Below the pieces are notes generated by a model that saw nothing but the letters and a program-made list of their open reading frames with translations, ran no database searches and was not told the DNA's origin. From assembly GCF_001677475.2 (NCBI RefSeq), contig NZ_CP015229.1: a DNA stretch of 64,000 nt. One strand, given 5' to 3'. The DNA comes from Escherichia coli (GTDB taxonomy: Bacteria > Pseudomonadota > Gammaproteobacteria > Enterobacterales > Enterobacteriaceae). Shown here in pieces: positions 3,945 through 62,132 of the stretch. Made by a program: the position numbers and the translations under genes. Every line of letters begins with the position of its first letter. Position 1 is the first letter of the stretch.

Positions 3945-6092
3945 TTACGCCAGTGCCGCTTCGCGCAGGCGAGTTTTCAACTTGTTGTACTCGTCAATCA
4001 CGTACTGCTCGGCGGCGCGCTGATCGGCGATCGGCTCGACGCGCACGGCGCAGTATTTGTATTCCGGCGTTTTCGTAATCGGGCTTAAGTTTTCGGTAAC
4101 CAGCTCGTTACAGGCACCAATCCACCACTGGTAGGTCATATAAATCGCCCCTTTGTTCGGACGATCGCTGACCTGCGCACGGGTGATAATTTTGCCTTTA
4201 CGCGAGTGCACCCAAACCAATGCCTCATCTTCAATACCCAGACGTTTGGCGTCTTCGGTATTGATTTGTGCGTAGCCAGGTTCATCAGCCAGCGCCGCCA
4301 GTGCCGCACAGTTACCGGTCATCGAACGGCAAGAGTAGTGACCAACTTCACGCACCGTTGACAGTACCATCGGATACTCGTCGGTGAGTTTGTCGATTGG
4401 CGCTACCCAGTCGCAGGTGAAGAACTGCGCCAGACCGTTCGGGGTATCAAACTTCTCTTTAAACAGATAAGAAGTCCCCTGATCGGCATCTGAAGTATCG
4501 CGGCAAGGCCACTGAATGAAGCCCAGTTCGCCCATTTTCTCGTAAGTCGCACCGTAGAAATCCGGGCACAGATGACGCAACTCATCCCAGATCTCCTGGG
4601 TGTTGTTGTAGTGCATCGGATAACCCATACGGGTGGCGATTTCACTGATGATTTGCCAGTCCGTTTTCAGATCCCATTTCGGTTCAACCGCTTTGAAGAA
4701 ACGCTGGAAGCCACGGTCAGCCGCAGTAAACACGCCTTCATGCTCGCCCCACGACGTTGACGGTAAAATAACATCCGCCGCCGACGCGGTTTTGGTCATA
4801 AAGATGTCCTGAACGATGACCAGTTCCAGATCTTCAAAGGCTTTACGTACTGCCGACAGCTCCGCGTCAGTTTGAAGCGGATCTTCGCCCATAATGTACG
4901 CGGCACGCACTTCACCATGCGCTGCGCGGTGCGGCAGCTCGCTGATGCGATAACCGGTATGAGCAGGCAGGCTTTCCACGCCCCAGGCTTTGGCGAATTT
5001 CTCGCGGTTAGCCGGATCTTTCACGTACTGGTATCCCGGATACGTATCCGGCAGCGCGCCCATATCGCAGGCACCCTGCACGTTGTTCTGACCACGAACC
5101 GGGTTTACACCCGCATGCGGCTTACCGAGGTTACCGGTCAGCATCGCGAGGCTGGTCAGAGAACGCACGGTTTCCACGCCCTGGTAGAACTGGGTTACAC
5201 CCATGCCCCACAGGATGGCGGCGCTTTTCGCCTGGGCATACATCCGTGCCGCCTGACGAATCTCACTGGCGCTGACGCCGGTGATATCTTCAACCGACTC
5301 CGGCGTGTAGCCTTCAACGATTTTACGATACTCTTCAAAGCCTTCTGTACGGGAAGCGACGAAAGCTTTGTCGTACAGGTTTTCTTCAATAATGACATGA
5401 CCCATCGCATTCAACAGCGCGATGTTCGAGCCGTTTTTCAGTGCAATGTGCATGTCAGCAATGCGCGCGGTTTCAATTTTGCGCGGATCGCAGACGATAA
5501 TTTTCGCCCCGTTACGTTTAGCGTTAATTACGTGGTTCGCCACGATTGGGTGGGAATCCGCCGGGTTGTACCCGAAAACGAACACTAAATCGGTATTATC
5601 AATTTCGTTAATAGCATTGCTCATTGCGCCATTACCGACCGATTGGTGCAGACCTGCAACCGATGGGCCGTGTCAGACACGAGCGCAGCAGTCAACGTTA
5701 TTGGTACCAATAACGGCGCGCGCAAATTTTTGCATTACATAGTTGGTTTCGTTACCCGTACCACGCGAGGAGCCGGTCGTCTGGATGGCATCCGGACCGT
5801 ACTTCTCTTTGATGGCGCTCAGGCGCTCGGCAACGTAATTCAGTGCCTCATCCCAGGAAACAGGTTCGAGTTTGCCGCCACGCTGGCGACGGATCATGGG
5901 GGTTTTCAGGCGCGGGGTCAGGATCTGGGTATCGTTAATGAAGTCCCAGCCATAATAACCCTTCAGACACAGGGTACCCTGGTTGGTTTTCCCCTGCGCT
6001 GCCTCCGCCCGGACGATTTTGCCGTTATCGACGACCAGGTTGATTTTGCAACCTGATGCGCAATAGGGGCAAACCGTGACGACTTTTTTCAT
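3945..6092 (-). CDS. fdhF: Formate dehydrogenase H, selenocysteine-containing molybdoenzyme (715 aa); in-frame UGA at 5673-5675 decoded as Sec
   Basis: ORF-track pieces 5673..6092 and 3945..5624 are in the same frame, separated only by TGA; read-through gives ...CCARV-U-HGPSVAGLHQSVGNGAMSNAINEIDNTDLVFVFGYNPADSHP..., the known FdhF sequence around Sec140. Confidence 0.95.
5630..5675 (-). other. Selenocysteine recoding site: UGA plus downstream SECIS hairpin in fdhF mRNA
   Basis: mRNA reads UGA-CACGGCCCAUCGGUUGCAGGUCUGCACCAAUCGGUCGGUAAUGGCG immediately 3' of the UGA, the classic fdhF SelB-binding stem-loop. Confidence 0.85.
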
Positions 6093-17207: not shown

Positions 17208-17884
17208 GAAGAGGCTCCCATCGGGTGCAGGCGGTCGGCGACGTCATTGCGTACGGCTTCGTCATGGAAGATACCGACGATGGCTGCGCCACGGGCTTTA
17301 GCTTCGAGAATCAGTTCCACCACCGCGGCGCTGTTTTTGGCGTCCAGCGAGGCGGTAGGTTCGTCGAGCAGCAGAATGGGGTAGTCGACGATAAAGCCAC
17401 GGGCGATGTTGACGCGCTGCTGTTCGCCGCCGGAGAAGGTCGATGGTGCAAGGTGCCACAGGCGTTCAGGCACGTTCAGGCGCGTCAGTAATCGGGCGGC
17501 TTTAGCGGCGCAGGCTTCACGCGGTACGCCGGTATCGAGCAGAGGCTGCATCACCACTTCCAGTGCCGAAATACGCGGGATGACGCGCAGAAACTGGCTC
17601 ACCCAGCCGATGGTGGTTTTGCGGATCTCCACCACTTTGCGCGCTGGCGCGGTGACCAGGTCTACCCATTCCTCACCGTGTTTGATCTGGATTTGCCCTT
17701 CGTCGGGCAGATAGTTGGCGTACAGCGAGCGCAGCAGGGTTGATTTTCCGCTGCCGGAGTGGCCGTGAAGCACCACGCATTCGCCTGCGTTGACGGTGAG
17801 CGAGGCACGTTGTAAGACGTGCAGGCGCACGCCGTTTTGCTGGTGCAGGATGAAGGTTTTACTGACGTTTTGTACGTTAATCAT
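17204..17884 (-). CDS. phnL: C-P lyase system ATP-binding protein PhnL
   Basis: ATG at 17884-17882 gives [11 protein letters not shown]...; Walker [10 protein letters not shown]; ORF-track start at 17998 is an extension through the upstream REP. Confidence 0.9.
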
Positions 17885-17905
17885 TTTTCGCCTCGTGGTT
17901 CGGGT

Positions 17906-17990
17906 GTCGGATGTGACGCTGACGCGTCTTATCCGACCTACGGGGAGCGCATTTGTCGGCCGGATAAGGCGTTTACGCCGTATCCGGTAC
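17906..17990. repeat. BIME: two inverted REP units between phnK and phnL
   Basis: gtcggatgtgacgctgacgcgtcttatccgacctac and gtcggccggataaggcgtttacgccgtatccggtac, an inverted REP pair inside the operon. Confidence 0.8.
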
Positions 17991-17994
17991 TGGC

Positions 17995-18753
17995 TCAATT
18001 CTGCAAAACCGATGACACCAGCAACTGGGTGTACGGGTGGTGCGGGTCGTCGAGCACGCGGTCGGTTAACCCACTCTCCACCACTTGCCCCTGTTTCATC
18101 ACCAGCAAACGGTCCGCCAGCAGGCGGGCGACGCCCAGATCGTGGGTGACAATCACCACCGCCAGATTCAGCTCCACCACCAGACCGCGCAGCAGATCGA
18201 GCAGGCGCGCCTGTACCGATACATCCAGCCCGCCGGTCGGTTCATCCATAAACACCAGCTTCGGATGCGTCACCAGGTTACGGGCAATCTGCAAACGTTG
18301 CTGCATGCCGCCGGAAAAGGTGGTCGGCAGGTCGTCGATCCGGTTGGCGGGAATCTCCACCTCTTCCAGCCACTTCTGCGCGGTGGCGCGGATGTCGCCG
18401 TAATGACGCGCCCCGGTTGCCATCAAGCGTTCGCCGATGTTGCCGCCCGCCGATACCTGACGGCGCAGGCCGTCGAGCGGATGCTGATGCACCACGCCCC
18501 ATTCGGTGCGCAGCAGGCGACGGCGGTCGGCCTCGCTCATGCCATAGAGGGAACGGTTTTCATAGTGAATCTCCCCCTGCTGCGGCGTCAGGCGCGCGGA
18601 GATTGATTTCAGCAGCGTGGTCTTCCCGGAGCCGGATTCCCCGACAATGCCTAGCACTTCCCCCGGCCATAAATCAAAAGAGACATCGCTAAAGCCTTTG
18701 CCCGGCGCGTAAAGGTGGGTCAGGTTATTGATCGAAAGTAACGGTTGATTCAT
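17995..18753 (-). CDS. phnK: C-P lyase system ATP-binding protein PhnK
   Basis: ATG at 18753 gives [15 protein letters not shown]...; Walker [10 protein letters not shown]. Confidence 0.9.
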
Positions 18754-22431: not shown

Positions 22432-23211
22432 TCAGATAAAGTGCTTACGCAACCGTTGAGAGAGGAAATCCAGCAGGCTGACCGTGACGATAATCAGCAC
22501 CATCAGGGCGCAGGTTTGCTGGAACTGGAAACCGCGAATCGCTTCCCACAGCGTGACGCCAATTCCGCCTGCGCCGACCATGCCTACGACGGTCGCCGAA
22601 CGGACGTTGGATTCGAAGCGATAGAGAGAATAGGAAATCAGCAGCGGCATCACTTGCGGCAGCACGCCGTAGAGGATCTCTTCGAGCTTGTTGGCACCAG
22701 TGGCGCGAATACCTTCCACCGGGCCGGGTTCAATTGCTTCTACCGCTTCGGAAAGCAGCTTGGAGAGCACGCCGGTGGTGTGGATAAACAGCGCCAGCAC
22801 GCCAGCGAACGGGCCAAGGCCGACGGCGACCACGAACAGCATGGCGAAGACCATTTCGTTAATGGCGCGGCAGGCGTCCATCAGGCGGCGTACGGGCTGG
22901 TAAACCCACCACGGCACCAGGTTTTCGGCGCTCATCAGGCCAAAGGGGATGGAGAGAACCACCGCCAGCGCGGTGCCCCAGACGGCGATTTGCAGCGTGA
23001 CGGCCATTTCGGTGAGGTAATCCTGCCACTGGCTGAAATCGGGCGGGAAGAAGTCGGCGGCGAACGTCGCCATGTTGCCGCCGTCTTTAATCAGCGTGAG
23101 CGGGGCCATTTCCGCGCCCTGCCACGAGACGACCAGCACGGCGAGAACAATGGCCCAGCTCAGAAGCGAGAACCAGCTGCGCTTGGGTGGGGCGATGGTG
23201 ATGGTTTGCAT
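22432..23211 (-). CDS. phnE: Phosphonate ABC transporter permease PhnE; uninterrupted 259-aa frame
   Basis: Single continuous [22 protein letters not shown]... with no frameshift. Confidence 0.9.
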
Positions 23212-23235
23212 ATATTGCTCCGTTTAATGTTTTCT

Positions 23236-23321
23236 CCCTCTCCCTGTGGGAGAGGGCCGGGGTGAGGGCATCAGCGTGCGCATTTCCCCCTCACCCTAAC
23301 CCTCTCCCTCAAGGGAGAGGG
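23236..23321. repeat. GC-rich intergenic repeat: three tandem/nested palindromes (BoxC-like)
   Basis: ccctctccc-tgt-gggagaggg (23236-23256), gggtgaggg...ccctcaccc (23260-23296) and ccctctccc-tcaa-gggagaggg (23300-23321), between phnD and phnE. Confidence 0.6.
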
Positions 23322-23336
23322 GACCGATCGAGCACA

Positions 23337-25742: not shown

Positions 25743-25807
25743 GATGGTGACCTCAGTTAAGAGAAGCCAGTTAAGTGTAGTTCGAAATTTATACAGATGA
25801 GAGGGAA

Positions 25808-25883
25808 GCCTGATAAGACGCGGTCAGCGTCGCATCAGGCTGTCGGCATCGTTGCCGGATGCGGCGCGAGCGCCTTATCCGGC
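25808..25883. repeat. BIME: two inverted REP units between yjdN and yjdM
   Basis: gcctgataagacgcggtcagcgtcgcatcaggc and gccggatgcggcgcgagcgccttatccggc. Confidence 0.8.
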
Positions 25884-25901
25884 TTACCGATCACAATACA
25901 A

Positions 25902-31518: not shown

Positions 31519-31547
31519 GGCCTGATGTGACGCTGTCTTATCAGGCC
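31519..31547. repeat. REP-like palindrome / proP terminator
   Basis: ggcctgatgtgacgctgtcttatcaggcc immediately downstream of the proP stop. Confidence 0.7.
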
Positions 31548-31559
31548 AACAATTGAACT

Positions 31560-31576
31560 CTTAAGGTTCACTTAAT
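31560..31576 (+). promoter_or_regulatory. PmrA (BasR) box upstream of pmrR
   Basis: CTTAAG-gttca-CTTAAT, an exact YTTAAK-N5-YTTAAK direct repeat 45-60 bp upstream of the pmrR ATG. Confidence 0.65.
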
Positions 31577-31620
31577 CTCTGACGCGCATACTCTCCTCCA
31601 GGTTAACGGAGGAGAGTGCA

Positions 31621-31710
31621 ATGAAAAACCGTGTTTATGAAAGTTTAACTACCGTGTTCAGCGTGCTGGTGGTCAGCAGCTTTCTTTATATCTGGTTTGC
31701 CACGTTCTGA
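31621..31710 (+). CDS. pmrR: Small membrane protein PmrR (29 aa); below the ORF-track cutoff
   Basis: atg aaa aac cgt ... ttc tga translates to MKNRVYESLTTVFSVLVVSSFLYIWFATF, a single TM helix; GGAGG Shine-Dalgarno; 3' end overlaps the convergent basS by 25 bp. Confidence 0.75.
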   Translation: MKNRVYESLTTVFSVLVVSSFLYIWFATF

Positions 31711-32786
31711 TCTTTCTTCAGCCGTACCCAGGCCCGCGTGCCGGAAGTCTCTTGCCGGTTCTGCAGGAAAAACTGCCCGTGATGCAACTGTGTAATGCGG
31801 CTGACAATACTTAACCCCAGACCAATCCCGCCATAACGGCTGTCCATACGTACAAACGCTTTACTCAACTCCCCGCATTTACTCTCATCAATACCCGGTC
31901 CTTCATCTTCAACGGCCATTACCGCTCCGCCATCTTCTTGCAGCTTAATCATAATGTTGCTGCCTTGCGGGCTGTAACGATGGGCGTTTTCTACCAGGTT
32001 TCGCAATAACATCCGCAGCAGGGTTGCGTCACCCTGAACGGTGATGTCGGCGGCGCTCTCTGGCAATAGCAGGGTTTGCTGGCGCTGGTCGAGCATGGTA
32101 CTGAGTTCGTCATACGAGGGGAGAATGACCTCTTCCAGCAGTTTTACATGTTGATAATTACCGGAAGAAAATGACTGTCCGGCGCGCGCCAGTTGTAACA
32201 GCTGGGAGACGCTCTCCATCATCTGATCAAGCCGTGCCACTAACGGTGCTACATCAATGTGATGCGTTTTCGCCAGCAGTTCCAGATGCAAACGCACCCC
32301 CGCCAGTGGCGTTCGCAGTTCGTGCGCGACGTCAGCGGTAAACAACCTTTCGTTATCCAGCGTGTTGGTCAGGCGACTGACCAGATCGTTTAACGCCGAA
32401 ACCACCGCTTCGATTTCGAGGGTGGCGCTGTGAATGGCAATGGGCGTTAAGTTGTCGGCGGTGCGCGCTTCCAGCTCTTTTTGCAGCTCCGCCAGCGGGC
32501 GGGTGATGCGATGCACCGCCTGATAGCAGATAAATAGCGTCAGGCTGACCATAAAGACGCCGGGGACAATCAGGCTGGCGACCGCCTCGCGGATCTCGCG
32601 CATAATGTGGCGATCGTTGTTGCGATTGTCGCGTAGCGCCTGCTCAAACAGCTGAATCTGCTCGGTACTTTCATGCCATAGCCAGAAGACGCTGATCAAC
32701 TCAAACACCAACAAAATGGCCCCGATGGTCAATATCAGCCGTTGGCGCAGCGATATTGGTCGGCGCAGAAAACGCATCAAATTCAA
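31686..32786 (-). CDS. basS: Two-component sensor histidine kinase BasS (PmrB)
   Basis: 366-aa ORF with two TM segments, HAMP, H-box (ADVAHELRTPL) and ATPase domain; exact start codon uncertain. Confidence 0.88.
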   Translation of the reverse strand: MNLMRFLRRPISLRQRLILTIGAILLVFELISVFWLWHESTEQIQLFEQALRDNRNNDRHIMREIREAVASLIVPGVFMVSLTLFICYQAVHRITRPLAELQKELEARTADNLTPIAIHSATLEIEAVVSALNDLVSRLTNTLDNERLFTADVAHELRTPLAGVRLHLELLAKTHHIDVAPLVARLDQMMESVSQLLQLARAGQSFSSGNYQHVKLLEEVILPSYDELSTMLDQRQQTLLLPESAADITVQGDATLLRMLLRNLVENAHRYSPQGSNIMIKLQEDGGAVMAVEDEGPGIDESKCGELSKAFVRMDSRYGGIGLGLSIVSRITQLHHGQFFLQNRQETSGTRAWVRLKKDQNVANQI

Positions 32787-62056: not shown

Positions 62057-62132
62057 TGGTGCCCGGACTCGGAATCGAACCAAGGACACGGGGATTTTCA
62101 ATCCCCTGCTCTACCGACTGAGCTATCCGGGC
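62057..62132 (-). tRNA. pheU: tRNA-Phe (anticodon GAA)
   Basis: Reverse complement GCCCGGATAGCTCAGTCGGTAGAGCAGGGGATTGAAAATCCCCGTGTCCTTGGTTCGATTCCGAGTCCGGGCACCA: 76 nt, anticodon loop ATTGAAAAT, TPsiC GGTTCGATTCC, encoded CCA. Confidence 0.97.

Follow-up and report, generated by a model that had tools for sequence, protein, structure and literature searches.

A tail-to-tail REP doublet in the phnK–phnL spacer of the Escherichia coli phn operon

The spacer between phnK and phnL in the Escherichia coli phn operon contains a real, ordinary E. coli REP doublet, in which a Z2 unit and a Y-variant unit lie tail to tail, 13 nt apart. We analyzed it in a stretch of 64,000 nt of E. coli DNA (hereafter the window), in which the operon runs on the minus strand. 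The element is already known in the sense that the same doublet is present in K-12, whose 355 REP loci have been catalogued (10.64898/2026.03.23.713779) and include its neighbors REP324 and REP325; only from these two neighbors do we infer that its own catalogue number is REP323. The MG1655 RefSeq record has no repeat features annotated in the phnK–phnL region. By analogy with better-studied REPs, we regard it as somewhat probable that the doublet is a mobile repeat that settled in a permissive gap and has a real but modest effect favoring the upstream genes.

An initial annotation of this DNA had described a 110-bp separation of phnK and phnL that carries two inverted REP units, and both statements are borne out by the gene ends and by the two oppositely oriented units that we mapped (Table 1), with which its coordinates, 17906–17990, agree. 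The spacer is also 110 nt long in K-12 MG1655 and differs from that of the window at five bases; the window's phnK–phnL region as a whole shares 94.2% identity with K-12 and 99.2% with the soil isolate VCSW7. The accompanying statement that most phn genes overlap by 1–14 bp is accurate for 7 of the 13 K-12 junctions but incomplete, as two further junctions abut (0–1 nt) and four are gapped. Likewise, phnK–phnL is indeed the largest annotated gap among the K-12 phn junctions, but its portrayal as the exceptional one overlooked phnD–phnE, a second repeat-bearing spacer of ~105 nt in K-12 and 125 nt in the window when the homologous phnE start codon is used.

Table 1. Positions of the phnK–phnL doublet, its flanking genes and other features of the window.
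Feature	Position	Strand	Remarks
phnK CDS, 252 aa	17995..18753	−	Translation and RefSeq annotation of matching sequence; K-12 homologue b4097; stop codon TGA at 17995–17997
phnL CDS, 226 aa	17204..17884	−	Translation and annotation; ATG at 17882–17884
phnK–phnL intercistronic spacer, 110 nt	17885..17994	−	From gene ends
phnL Shine–Dalgarno sequence, GAGG	17891..17894	−	6 nt 5′ of the ATG; unpaired in the predicted fold
REP unit 1, Z2 type, GTCGGCCGGATAAGGCGTTTACGCCGTATCCGG	17955..17987	+ (strand of the GTAG form)	Tail degenerate, GTCG, in the window strain
REP unit 2, Y variant, GTAGGTCGGATAAGACGCGTCAGCGTCACATCCGAC	17906..17941	− (strand of the GTAG form, which is the mRNA strand)	GTAG tail
Tail-to-tail linker, 13 nt, mRNA AAATGCGCTCCCC	17942..17954	.	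Without IHF consensus
Predicted antisense RNA, window equivalent	~17549..18029	+	481 nt in K-12 (U00096.2 4315582–4316062)
phnE	22432..23211		Intact 259-aa frame; annotated as a pseudogene in K-12
phnD–phnE spacer	23212..23336	−	GC-rich palindromic repeat CCCCTCTCCCTTGAGGGAGAGGGTTAGGGTGAGGGG...CCCTCACCCCGGCCCTCTCCCACAGGGAGAGGG
REP325 locus	25804..25887		Two units (one Y-S-Z2 pair)
SECIS_2	5626..5680	−	Rfam, above gathering score
sRNA STnc630	31552..31717	+	Rfam, above gathering score; adjoins a REP at 31537–31550
tRNA	62060..62132	−	Rfam, above gathering score

On the phn mRNA, the 5′ part of the spacer runs from the phnK TGA through GCCAGTA, the hairpin CCGGATACGGCG-TAAA-CGCCTTATCCGG and CCGAC into the linker AAATGCGCTCCCC, and the 3′ part consists of GTAG, the hairpin GTCGGATAAGACGC-GTCA-GCGTCACATCCGAC, ACCCGAACCAC, GAGG, CGAAAA and the phnL ATG. 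The first of these hairpins is unit 1 read as an iREP, and it begins 7 nt past the phnK stop codon. The two units are inverted with respect to each other, so that their GTAG and CTAC tails face across the linker, which is loosely like the 17-nt tail-to-tail linker of the REP325 array but has the opposite polarity. Both are imperfect palindromes within the 30–40-nt size range of REPs, with stems of 11 and 12 bp that are interrupted at the canonical place by an internal mismatch or bulge. In K-12, unit 1 reads GTAGGCCGGATAAGGCGTTTACGCCGCATCCGGCA and shares a 35-nt identity with the Z2 units of the REP325 array. Unit 2 has the inner stem and loop of the Y type (AAGACGCG...CGTCGCAT), combined with an outer stem, GTCGGAT/ATCCGAC, that replaces GCCTGAT/ATCAGGC, a subtype also seen in K-12 REP324, in phnD–phnE.

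The tail of unit 2 is GTAG, and that of unit 1 is GTAG in K-12 and most alleles and GTCG in the window and in VCSW7-like strains. The tail motif occurs seven times in the 64-kb window, against 0.54 occurrences expected from shuffled sequence. Both units are extragenic, lying between the stop codon and the Shine–Dalgarno sequence, and have near-identical or identical counterparts in K-12 REP324 and REP325. Their REP sequence, tail motif, internal mismatches, inverted arrangement and extragenic position together exclude the possibility that they are unrelated to the REP family. Because the transposase no longer cleaves in vitro once any one base of GTAG is changed (PMC3479197), the GTCG tail suggests that the window copy is probably no longer a substrate for the REP-associated transposase on the unit 1 side.

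The term BIME, which the initial annotation had used, fits the doublet only loosely: two inverted REPs flank a linker and the components are BIME-2-like, but the element is neither a BIME-1 nor a canonical BIME-2. In a BIME-1, a z1 and a y unit flank the long, conserved L linker, in which an IHF site is usually found, and a BIME-2 consists of tandem copies in which z2 and y units (REP and iREP) are connected by a short S linker (PMC3333891). The phnK–phnL element shares with BIME-1, RIB and RIP elements two inverted REPs whose CTAC and GTAG tails face a central linker. It departs from them in having a Z2 instead of a z1 unit and a linker of 13 nt instead of the long L, and the IHF consensus WATCAANNNNTTR is absent from positions 17885–17994 even when one mismatch is allowed; the IHF binding that had been suggested for this site is therefore unsupported. 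With a Z2 unit and a Y variant, the element has the components of a BIME-2 but not its arrangement, as it is a single tail-to-tail pair without an S-linked head-to-head junction or a tandem array. In structure, the doublet is REPIN-like, a tail-to-tail arrangement of BIME-2 components. It resembles REPINs (Bertels and Rainey 2011, PMC3116915) in its two inverted REPs, its short spacer and its potential to form a long hairpin, which is the minimum-energy fold of the K-12 allele, and differs from them in that one GTAG tail is mutated to GTCG in the window strain.

We found no sigma-70-like promoter at the element and no intrinsic terminator (hairpin plus U-tract) at either REP on the mRNA strand, where the sequences 3′ of the two hairpins are CCGACAAAUG and ACACCCGAAC. 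The Rfam family naRNA4, which is derived from REP325 and models a Y-S-Z2 pair, scores 85.5 bits on the REP325 locus of the window and 39–41 bits on the phnK–phnL spacer, which is below its gathering score of 59.5. Rfam matches above the gathering score elsewhere in the window (SECIS_2, STnc630 and a tRNA; Table 1) are unrelated to the element.

The spacer RNA is predicted to be strongly structured. Its fold of −44.2 kcal/mol compares with −28.9 ± 3.1 kcal/mol for shuffled sequences (z = −5.0), none of 200 of which folded as well. In the window allele, this fold consists of two strong hairpins, worth −17.2 kcal/mol (unit 1) and −18.9 kcal/mol (unit 2) when taken separately, and it is preferred over the long form at −39.8 kcal/mol. 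In the K-12-type allele, the minimum-energy fold is instead a single long hairpin of −61 kcal/mol, formed by pairing between the two units. We collected ten distinct doublet alleles, drawn from 50 metagenome contigs as well as from the window, K-12 and strain VCSW7, and these alleles vary at ten sites. Eight of the sites are located in loops, the tail, the flanks or the internal mismatch, and the two in stems exchange C–G for U–G and G–U for A–U, so that all 230 pair cells across the ten alleles are still compatible with standard or wobble pairing. The chance that ten randomly placed substitutions would spare every pair is ~4%. Because no compensatory double change occurs among the ten alleles, these data represent retention of pairing rather than covariation and prove nothing about function; the absence of pair-breaking polymorphism may reflect low divergence or repeat homogenization instead of selection for a role in the mRNA.

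Within E. coli, the phnK–phnL junction could be found in about 5,387 of 5,426 complete genomes, and we saw no E. coli junction that was free of repeats. The REP doublet is present in 4,838 of the 5,426 genomes (about 89%). Another 543 (~10%), including E. coli NT1N25 (contig L002, 486–661), carry a different, 176-nt spacer made of a GC-rich palindromic repeat of the type CCCTCTCCC...GGGAGAGGGTTAGGGTGAGGGG, with a fold of −95.1 kcal/mol (z = −6.5), and thus provide strains without the REP pair for comparison. This alternative element may be the repeat called boxC. When we looked for a tie to the original boxC locus beside fabI, the partial copy examined lay between bacA and cca. We also considered REP-mediated rearrangement for two metagenome contigs (L097 and L120), in which REP unit 2 and phnL directly follow the 3′ end of an unrelated gene. 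Because this junction occurs in none of the 5,426 complete E. coli genomes, we interpret both as chimeric assemblies, in which the REPs at phnK–phnL caused the false joins.

The neighboring repeats of the operon are variable as well. At the place where K-12 has the head-to-head pair REP324, the phnD–phnE spacer of the window has a GC-rich palindromic repeat of the same family as the 176-nt alternative element. The window type of this spacer is found in 348 and the K-12 type in 3,744 of the 5,426 complete genomes, numbers that imply at least one third state. The REP325 locus of the window holds only two units, compared with 12 in K-12, and phnE, a pseudogene in the K-12 annotation, has an intact frame in the window (Table 1).

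We then compared three junctions across the phnK neighborhoods of 80 species. The phnJ–phnK and phnL–phnM junctions are overlaps, each with a median gap of −4 nt, and palindromic repeats were found at phnJ–phnK in 0 of 79 species. The phnK–phnL junction has a median gap of 22 nt (≤30 nt in 50 of the 80 species) and bears palindromic repeats in at least 15 of 80; ten of these repeat-bearing spacers reach z ≤ −5. Apparent large phnJ–phnK gaps in distant species proved to be N-terminal extensions or unstructured sequence and not repeats. The repeats at phnK–phnL are diverse. Enterobacter cloacae has one repeat unit and E. asburiae three, Pluralibacter and Citrobacter werkmanii have tail-to-tail palindromic pairs, and Kluyvera, Cedecea sulfonylureivorans and another enterobacterium have palindromic repeats of their own, as do Mesorhizobium and Pelagibacterium; four Pseudomonas have four different REP types. 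Pseudocitrobacter faecalis carries three tandem copies of the GC-rich element that forms the alternative E. coli spacer (contig L004, 2260–2557). Its PhnK and PhnL are 98% identical to those of E. coli, compared with about 92–95% and 84–86% in other genera, which suggests a recent transfer of the phn operon.

Occupancy of the junction also changes within genera: the gap is 9 or 107 nt in Citrobacter, 9 or 81 nt in Cedecea and 7, 56 or 160 nt in Enterobacter. The ancestral-type spacer without a repeat is 7–9 nt long, and repeat-free junctions such as TAAGAGGCCAACATG (Citrobacter sp. FP75 and Leclercia) have the GAGGC Shine–Dalgarno sequence in common with E. coli. The E. coli doublet has a linker of opposite polarity to those in the pairs of Citrobacter, Pluralibacter and Enterobacter, which argues for separate insertions. 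The simplest reading of these comparisons is that phnK–phnL is the junction in this part of the operon that offers non-coding bases, so that small mobile palindromes can land and turn over there. As a separate observation, the phnK stop codon is TGA in all nine repeat-bearing enterobacterial junctions and TAA or TAG in five of the six repeat-free ones (7–9 nt) within the set L001–L030, a contrast that may reflect the way in which an ancestral TGAGG sequence was split.

Intercistronic REPs are said to have been described by Higgins in 1982, Newbury in 1987 and Stern in 1988 in malE–malF of E. coli and hisJ–hisQ of Salmonella, and stabilization of the upstream mRNA and differential expression were reportedly measured for these mal and his REPs. 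The phnK–phnL doublet is like them in lying between co-transcribed cistrons of an ABC-transporter operon and in forming mRNA hairpins without a U-tract terminator. It is unlike them in that its effect is proposed only by analogy and in that both of its flanking genes encode subunits of a single 2:2 complex. A second comparison is offered by REP325, ~8 kb upstream between the tandem genes yjdM and yjdN, which combines the same Z2 and Y unit types. In K-12, however, REP325 comprises 12 units, reported to alternate between Z2 and Y (10.64898/2026.03.23.713779), whose S-linked head-to-head pairs make it a canonical BIME-2 array, in contrast to the single tail-to-tail pair at phnK–phnL. REP325 is a proven stabilizer and partly Rho-dependent attenuator, which stabilizes the upstream mRNA and attenuates the downstream mRNA ~8–10-fold, partly via Rho (10.64898/2026.03.23.713779). 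More generally, tandem gene pairs with a REP have a raised ratio of upstream to downstream expression (median log-transformed value of 0.96 versus −0.09), with effects that are strongly context-dependent and many REPs that have none (10.64898/2026.03.23.713779). A literature search on phnK and REPs, with the classic phn and BIME papers outside its reach, found no published effect of the phnK–phnL element.

Published transcript data bear directly on the junction. Directional RNA-seq of K-12 recovered one phnC–phnP transcript at 2 h and 4 h of phosphate starvation, with coverage that, according to the authors, varies or tends to drop along the operon (PMC3734233). The REP doublet is thus co-transcribed within the phnC–P mRNA, and because a single transcript is made under phosphate starvation, it is not a strong terminator. 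A phnG–K unit ending at the phnK–phnL junction appeared among the assembled units of only one sample, uninduced and heat-shocked (15 min), and a phnL–P unit was also assembled in uninduced samples (PMC3734233). In uninduced K-12 grown in LB, DESeq2 baseMean values are 16 for phnJ, 32 for phnK, 118 for phnL, 43 for phnM, 15 for phnN, 66 for phnO and 136 for phnP, very low counts for which the strandedness setting is unstated (10.64898/2026.03.23.713779, supplement). The higher value of phnL than of phnK is the opposite of an upstream bias, in a state in which the operon is off and the counts are tiny and to which an antisense RNA may contribute. Such an RNA, 481 nt long and predicted on the forward strand of K-12, is listed in the supplement of PMC3734233; from a start within phnL it runs across the REP doublet and stops ~35 nt into phnK (Table 1). 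We found no promoter-like site for this phnL–phnK antisense RNA. If it is real, the doublet may also mark its 3′ end.

Taken with the known systems, these observations are consistent with the following scheme. The doublet would be a small non-autonomous repeat of the kind spread by a REP-associated tyrosine transposase, and it would have inserted at the one non-overlapping junction in the catalytic part of the phn operon. A repeat landing there, past the phnK stop codon and ahead of the phnL ribosome-binding site, would therefore have been harmless. On the phnC–P mRNA, it would form two stable hairpins or, in the K-12 allele, one long hairpin. By analogy with malE–malF, hisJ–hisQ and REP325, such hairpins may slow 3′-to-5′ exonucleases and so favor the phnC–K part of the message, and there may be a modest, partly Rho-dependent loss of transcription into phnL–P. 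The differential decay and partial termination proposed in the initial annotation are plausible on these grounds. On the same analogy, phnL would be translated from its own preserved Shine–Dalgarno sequence, without coupling to phnK.

The main alternative to a modest upstream-favoring effect is that the doublet is a pure passenger, a selfish or neutral repeat in a tolerated gap that leaves phn expression measurably unaffected. We consider this doubtful, though it accounts for much of what was seen: occupancy is labile between close relatives, repeat-free junctions work in other genera, a quite different element sits at the site in 10% of E. coli genomes, the phnD–phnE spacer undergoes the same turnover and a full-length transcript is made on induction. 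In addition, PhnK and PhnL are both required in a 2:2 ratio, as they form a double dimer on the core in Phn(GHIJKL)2 (PMC9947105), and this stoichiometry leaves no obvious need for unequal dosage across the junction. On the other hand, hairpins of −44 to −61 kcal/mol that begin 6–7 nt past a stop codon are unlikely to be inert given the published effects of REPs, pair-breaking polymorphism is absent from the ten alleles, and some strongly structured element is found in every E. coli junction examined (4,838 plus 543 of about 5,387). The proximity to the stop codon raises a further alternative. Liang, Rudd and Deutscher reportedly found (Mol Cell, 2015) that REPs within ~15 nt of a stop codon lead to ribosome stalling and tmRNA tagging. 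By analogy, ribosomes might stall at the phnK stop codon, with cleavage of the mRNA, tmRNA tagging of PhnK and a lowered PhnK output. The distances from stop codon to stem (7 nt in the window, 6 nt in K-12 and 4–12 nt in other enterobacteria with REPs at this junction) all fall within the reported range, but they may simply mirror the tiny ancestral spacer of 7–9 nt, and PhnK is needed stoichiometrically in the complex, so that we judge such translational tuning unlikely.

Two other roles seem still less probable. The doublet could act at the DNA level, as a gyrase binding or cleavage site, as a topological insulator in a long induced operon or as an IHF site, an idea to which we give very little credence. 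A subset of BIME-2 elements is enriched in gyrase cleavage sites, most of them within y-type REPs (PMC6379681), and the Y-variant unit makes gyrase binding at the doublet possible by analogy. Yet the same restriction to a subset counts against it, as do the lack of an IHF consensus and of a long linker and the lack of an S-linked head-to-head junction or tandem array; moreover, the available part of the Topo-Seq supplement text of PMC6379681 contains no entry for phnK or phnL. The remaining idea is that a strong hairpin, in RNA or DNA, is advantageous at the phnK/phnL boundary, so that unrelated repeats have been recruited there convergently. Unrelated palindromic families do occupy the same junction in Enterobacteriaceae, Pseudomonas (four types), Mesorhizobium and Pelagibacterium, strong structure is predicted for both E. 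coli alleles (−44 to −61 and −95 kcal/mol) and such repeats are absent from phnJ–phnK. However, the gap is ≤30 nt and unstructured in 50 of the 80 species, phnK–phnL is simply the junction with non-coding bases available for insertion, the PhnK:PhnL ratio is 2:2 and occupancy is labile inside genera, which together make selection for a junction element improbable. The translational, gyrase and selected-hairpin ideas receive smaller, partly overlapping shares beside a mobile repeat with a modest effect favoring the upstream genes.

If a hairpin at the boundary were selected after all, it could, for example, uncouple or meter the expression of phnG–K relative to phnL–P or stop the crossing antisense transcript, and the position would have recruited elements as different as the E. 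coli REP doublets, the GC-rich CCCTCTCCC/GGGAGAGGG element, the rhizobial repeats and the REPs of Enterobacter, Citrobacter and Pseudomonas. The phnK–phnL locus itself is of little importance, being a standard REP doublet that is also present in K-12, in a well-studied operon. Its practical value is that of a clean natural test bed for intra-operon REPs, in a tightly inducible operon of ~12 kb and between genes whose products are 2:2 partners. Natural alleles for such comparisons are at hand, with the REP doublet in 89% and the other palindromic repeat in 10% of E. coli, and with repeat-free junctions in related genera.
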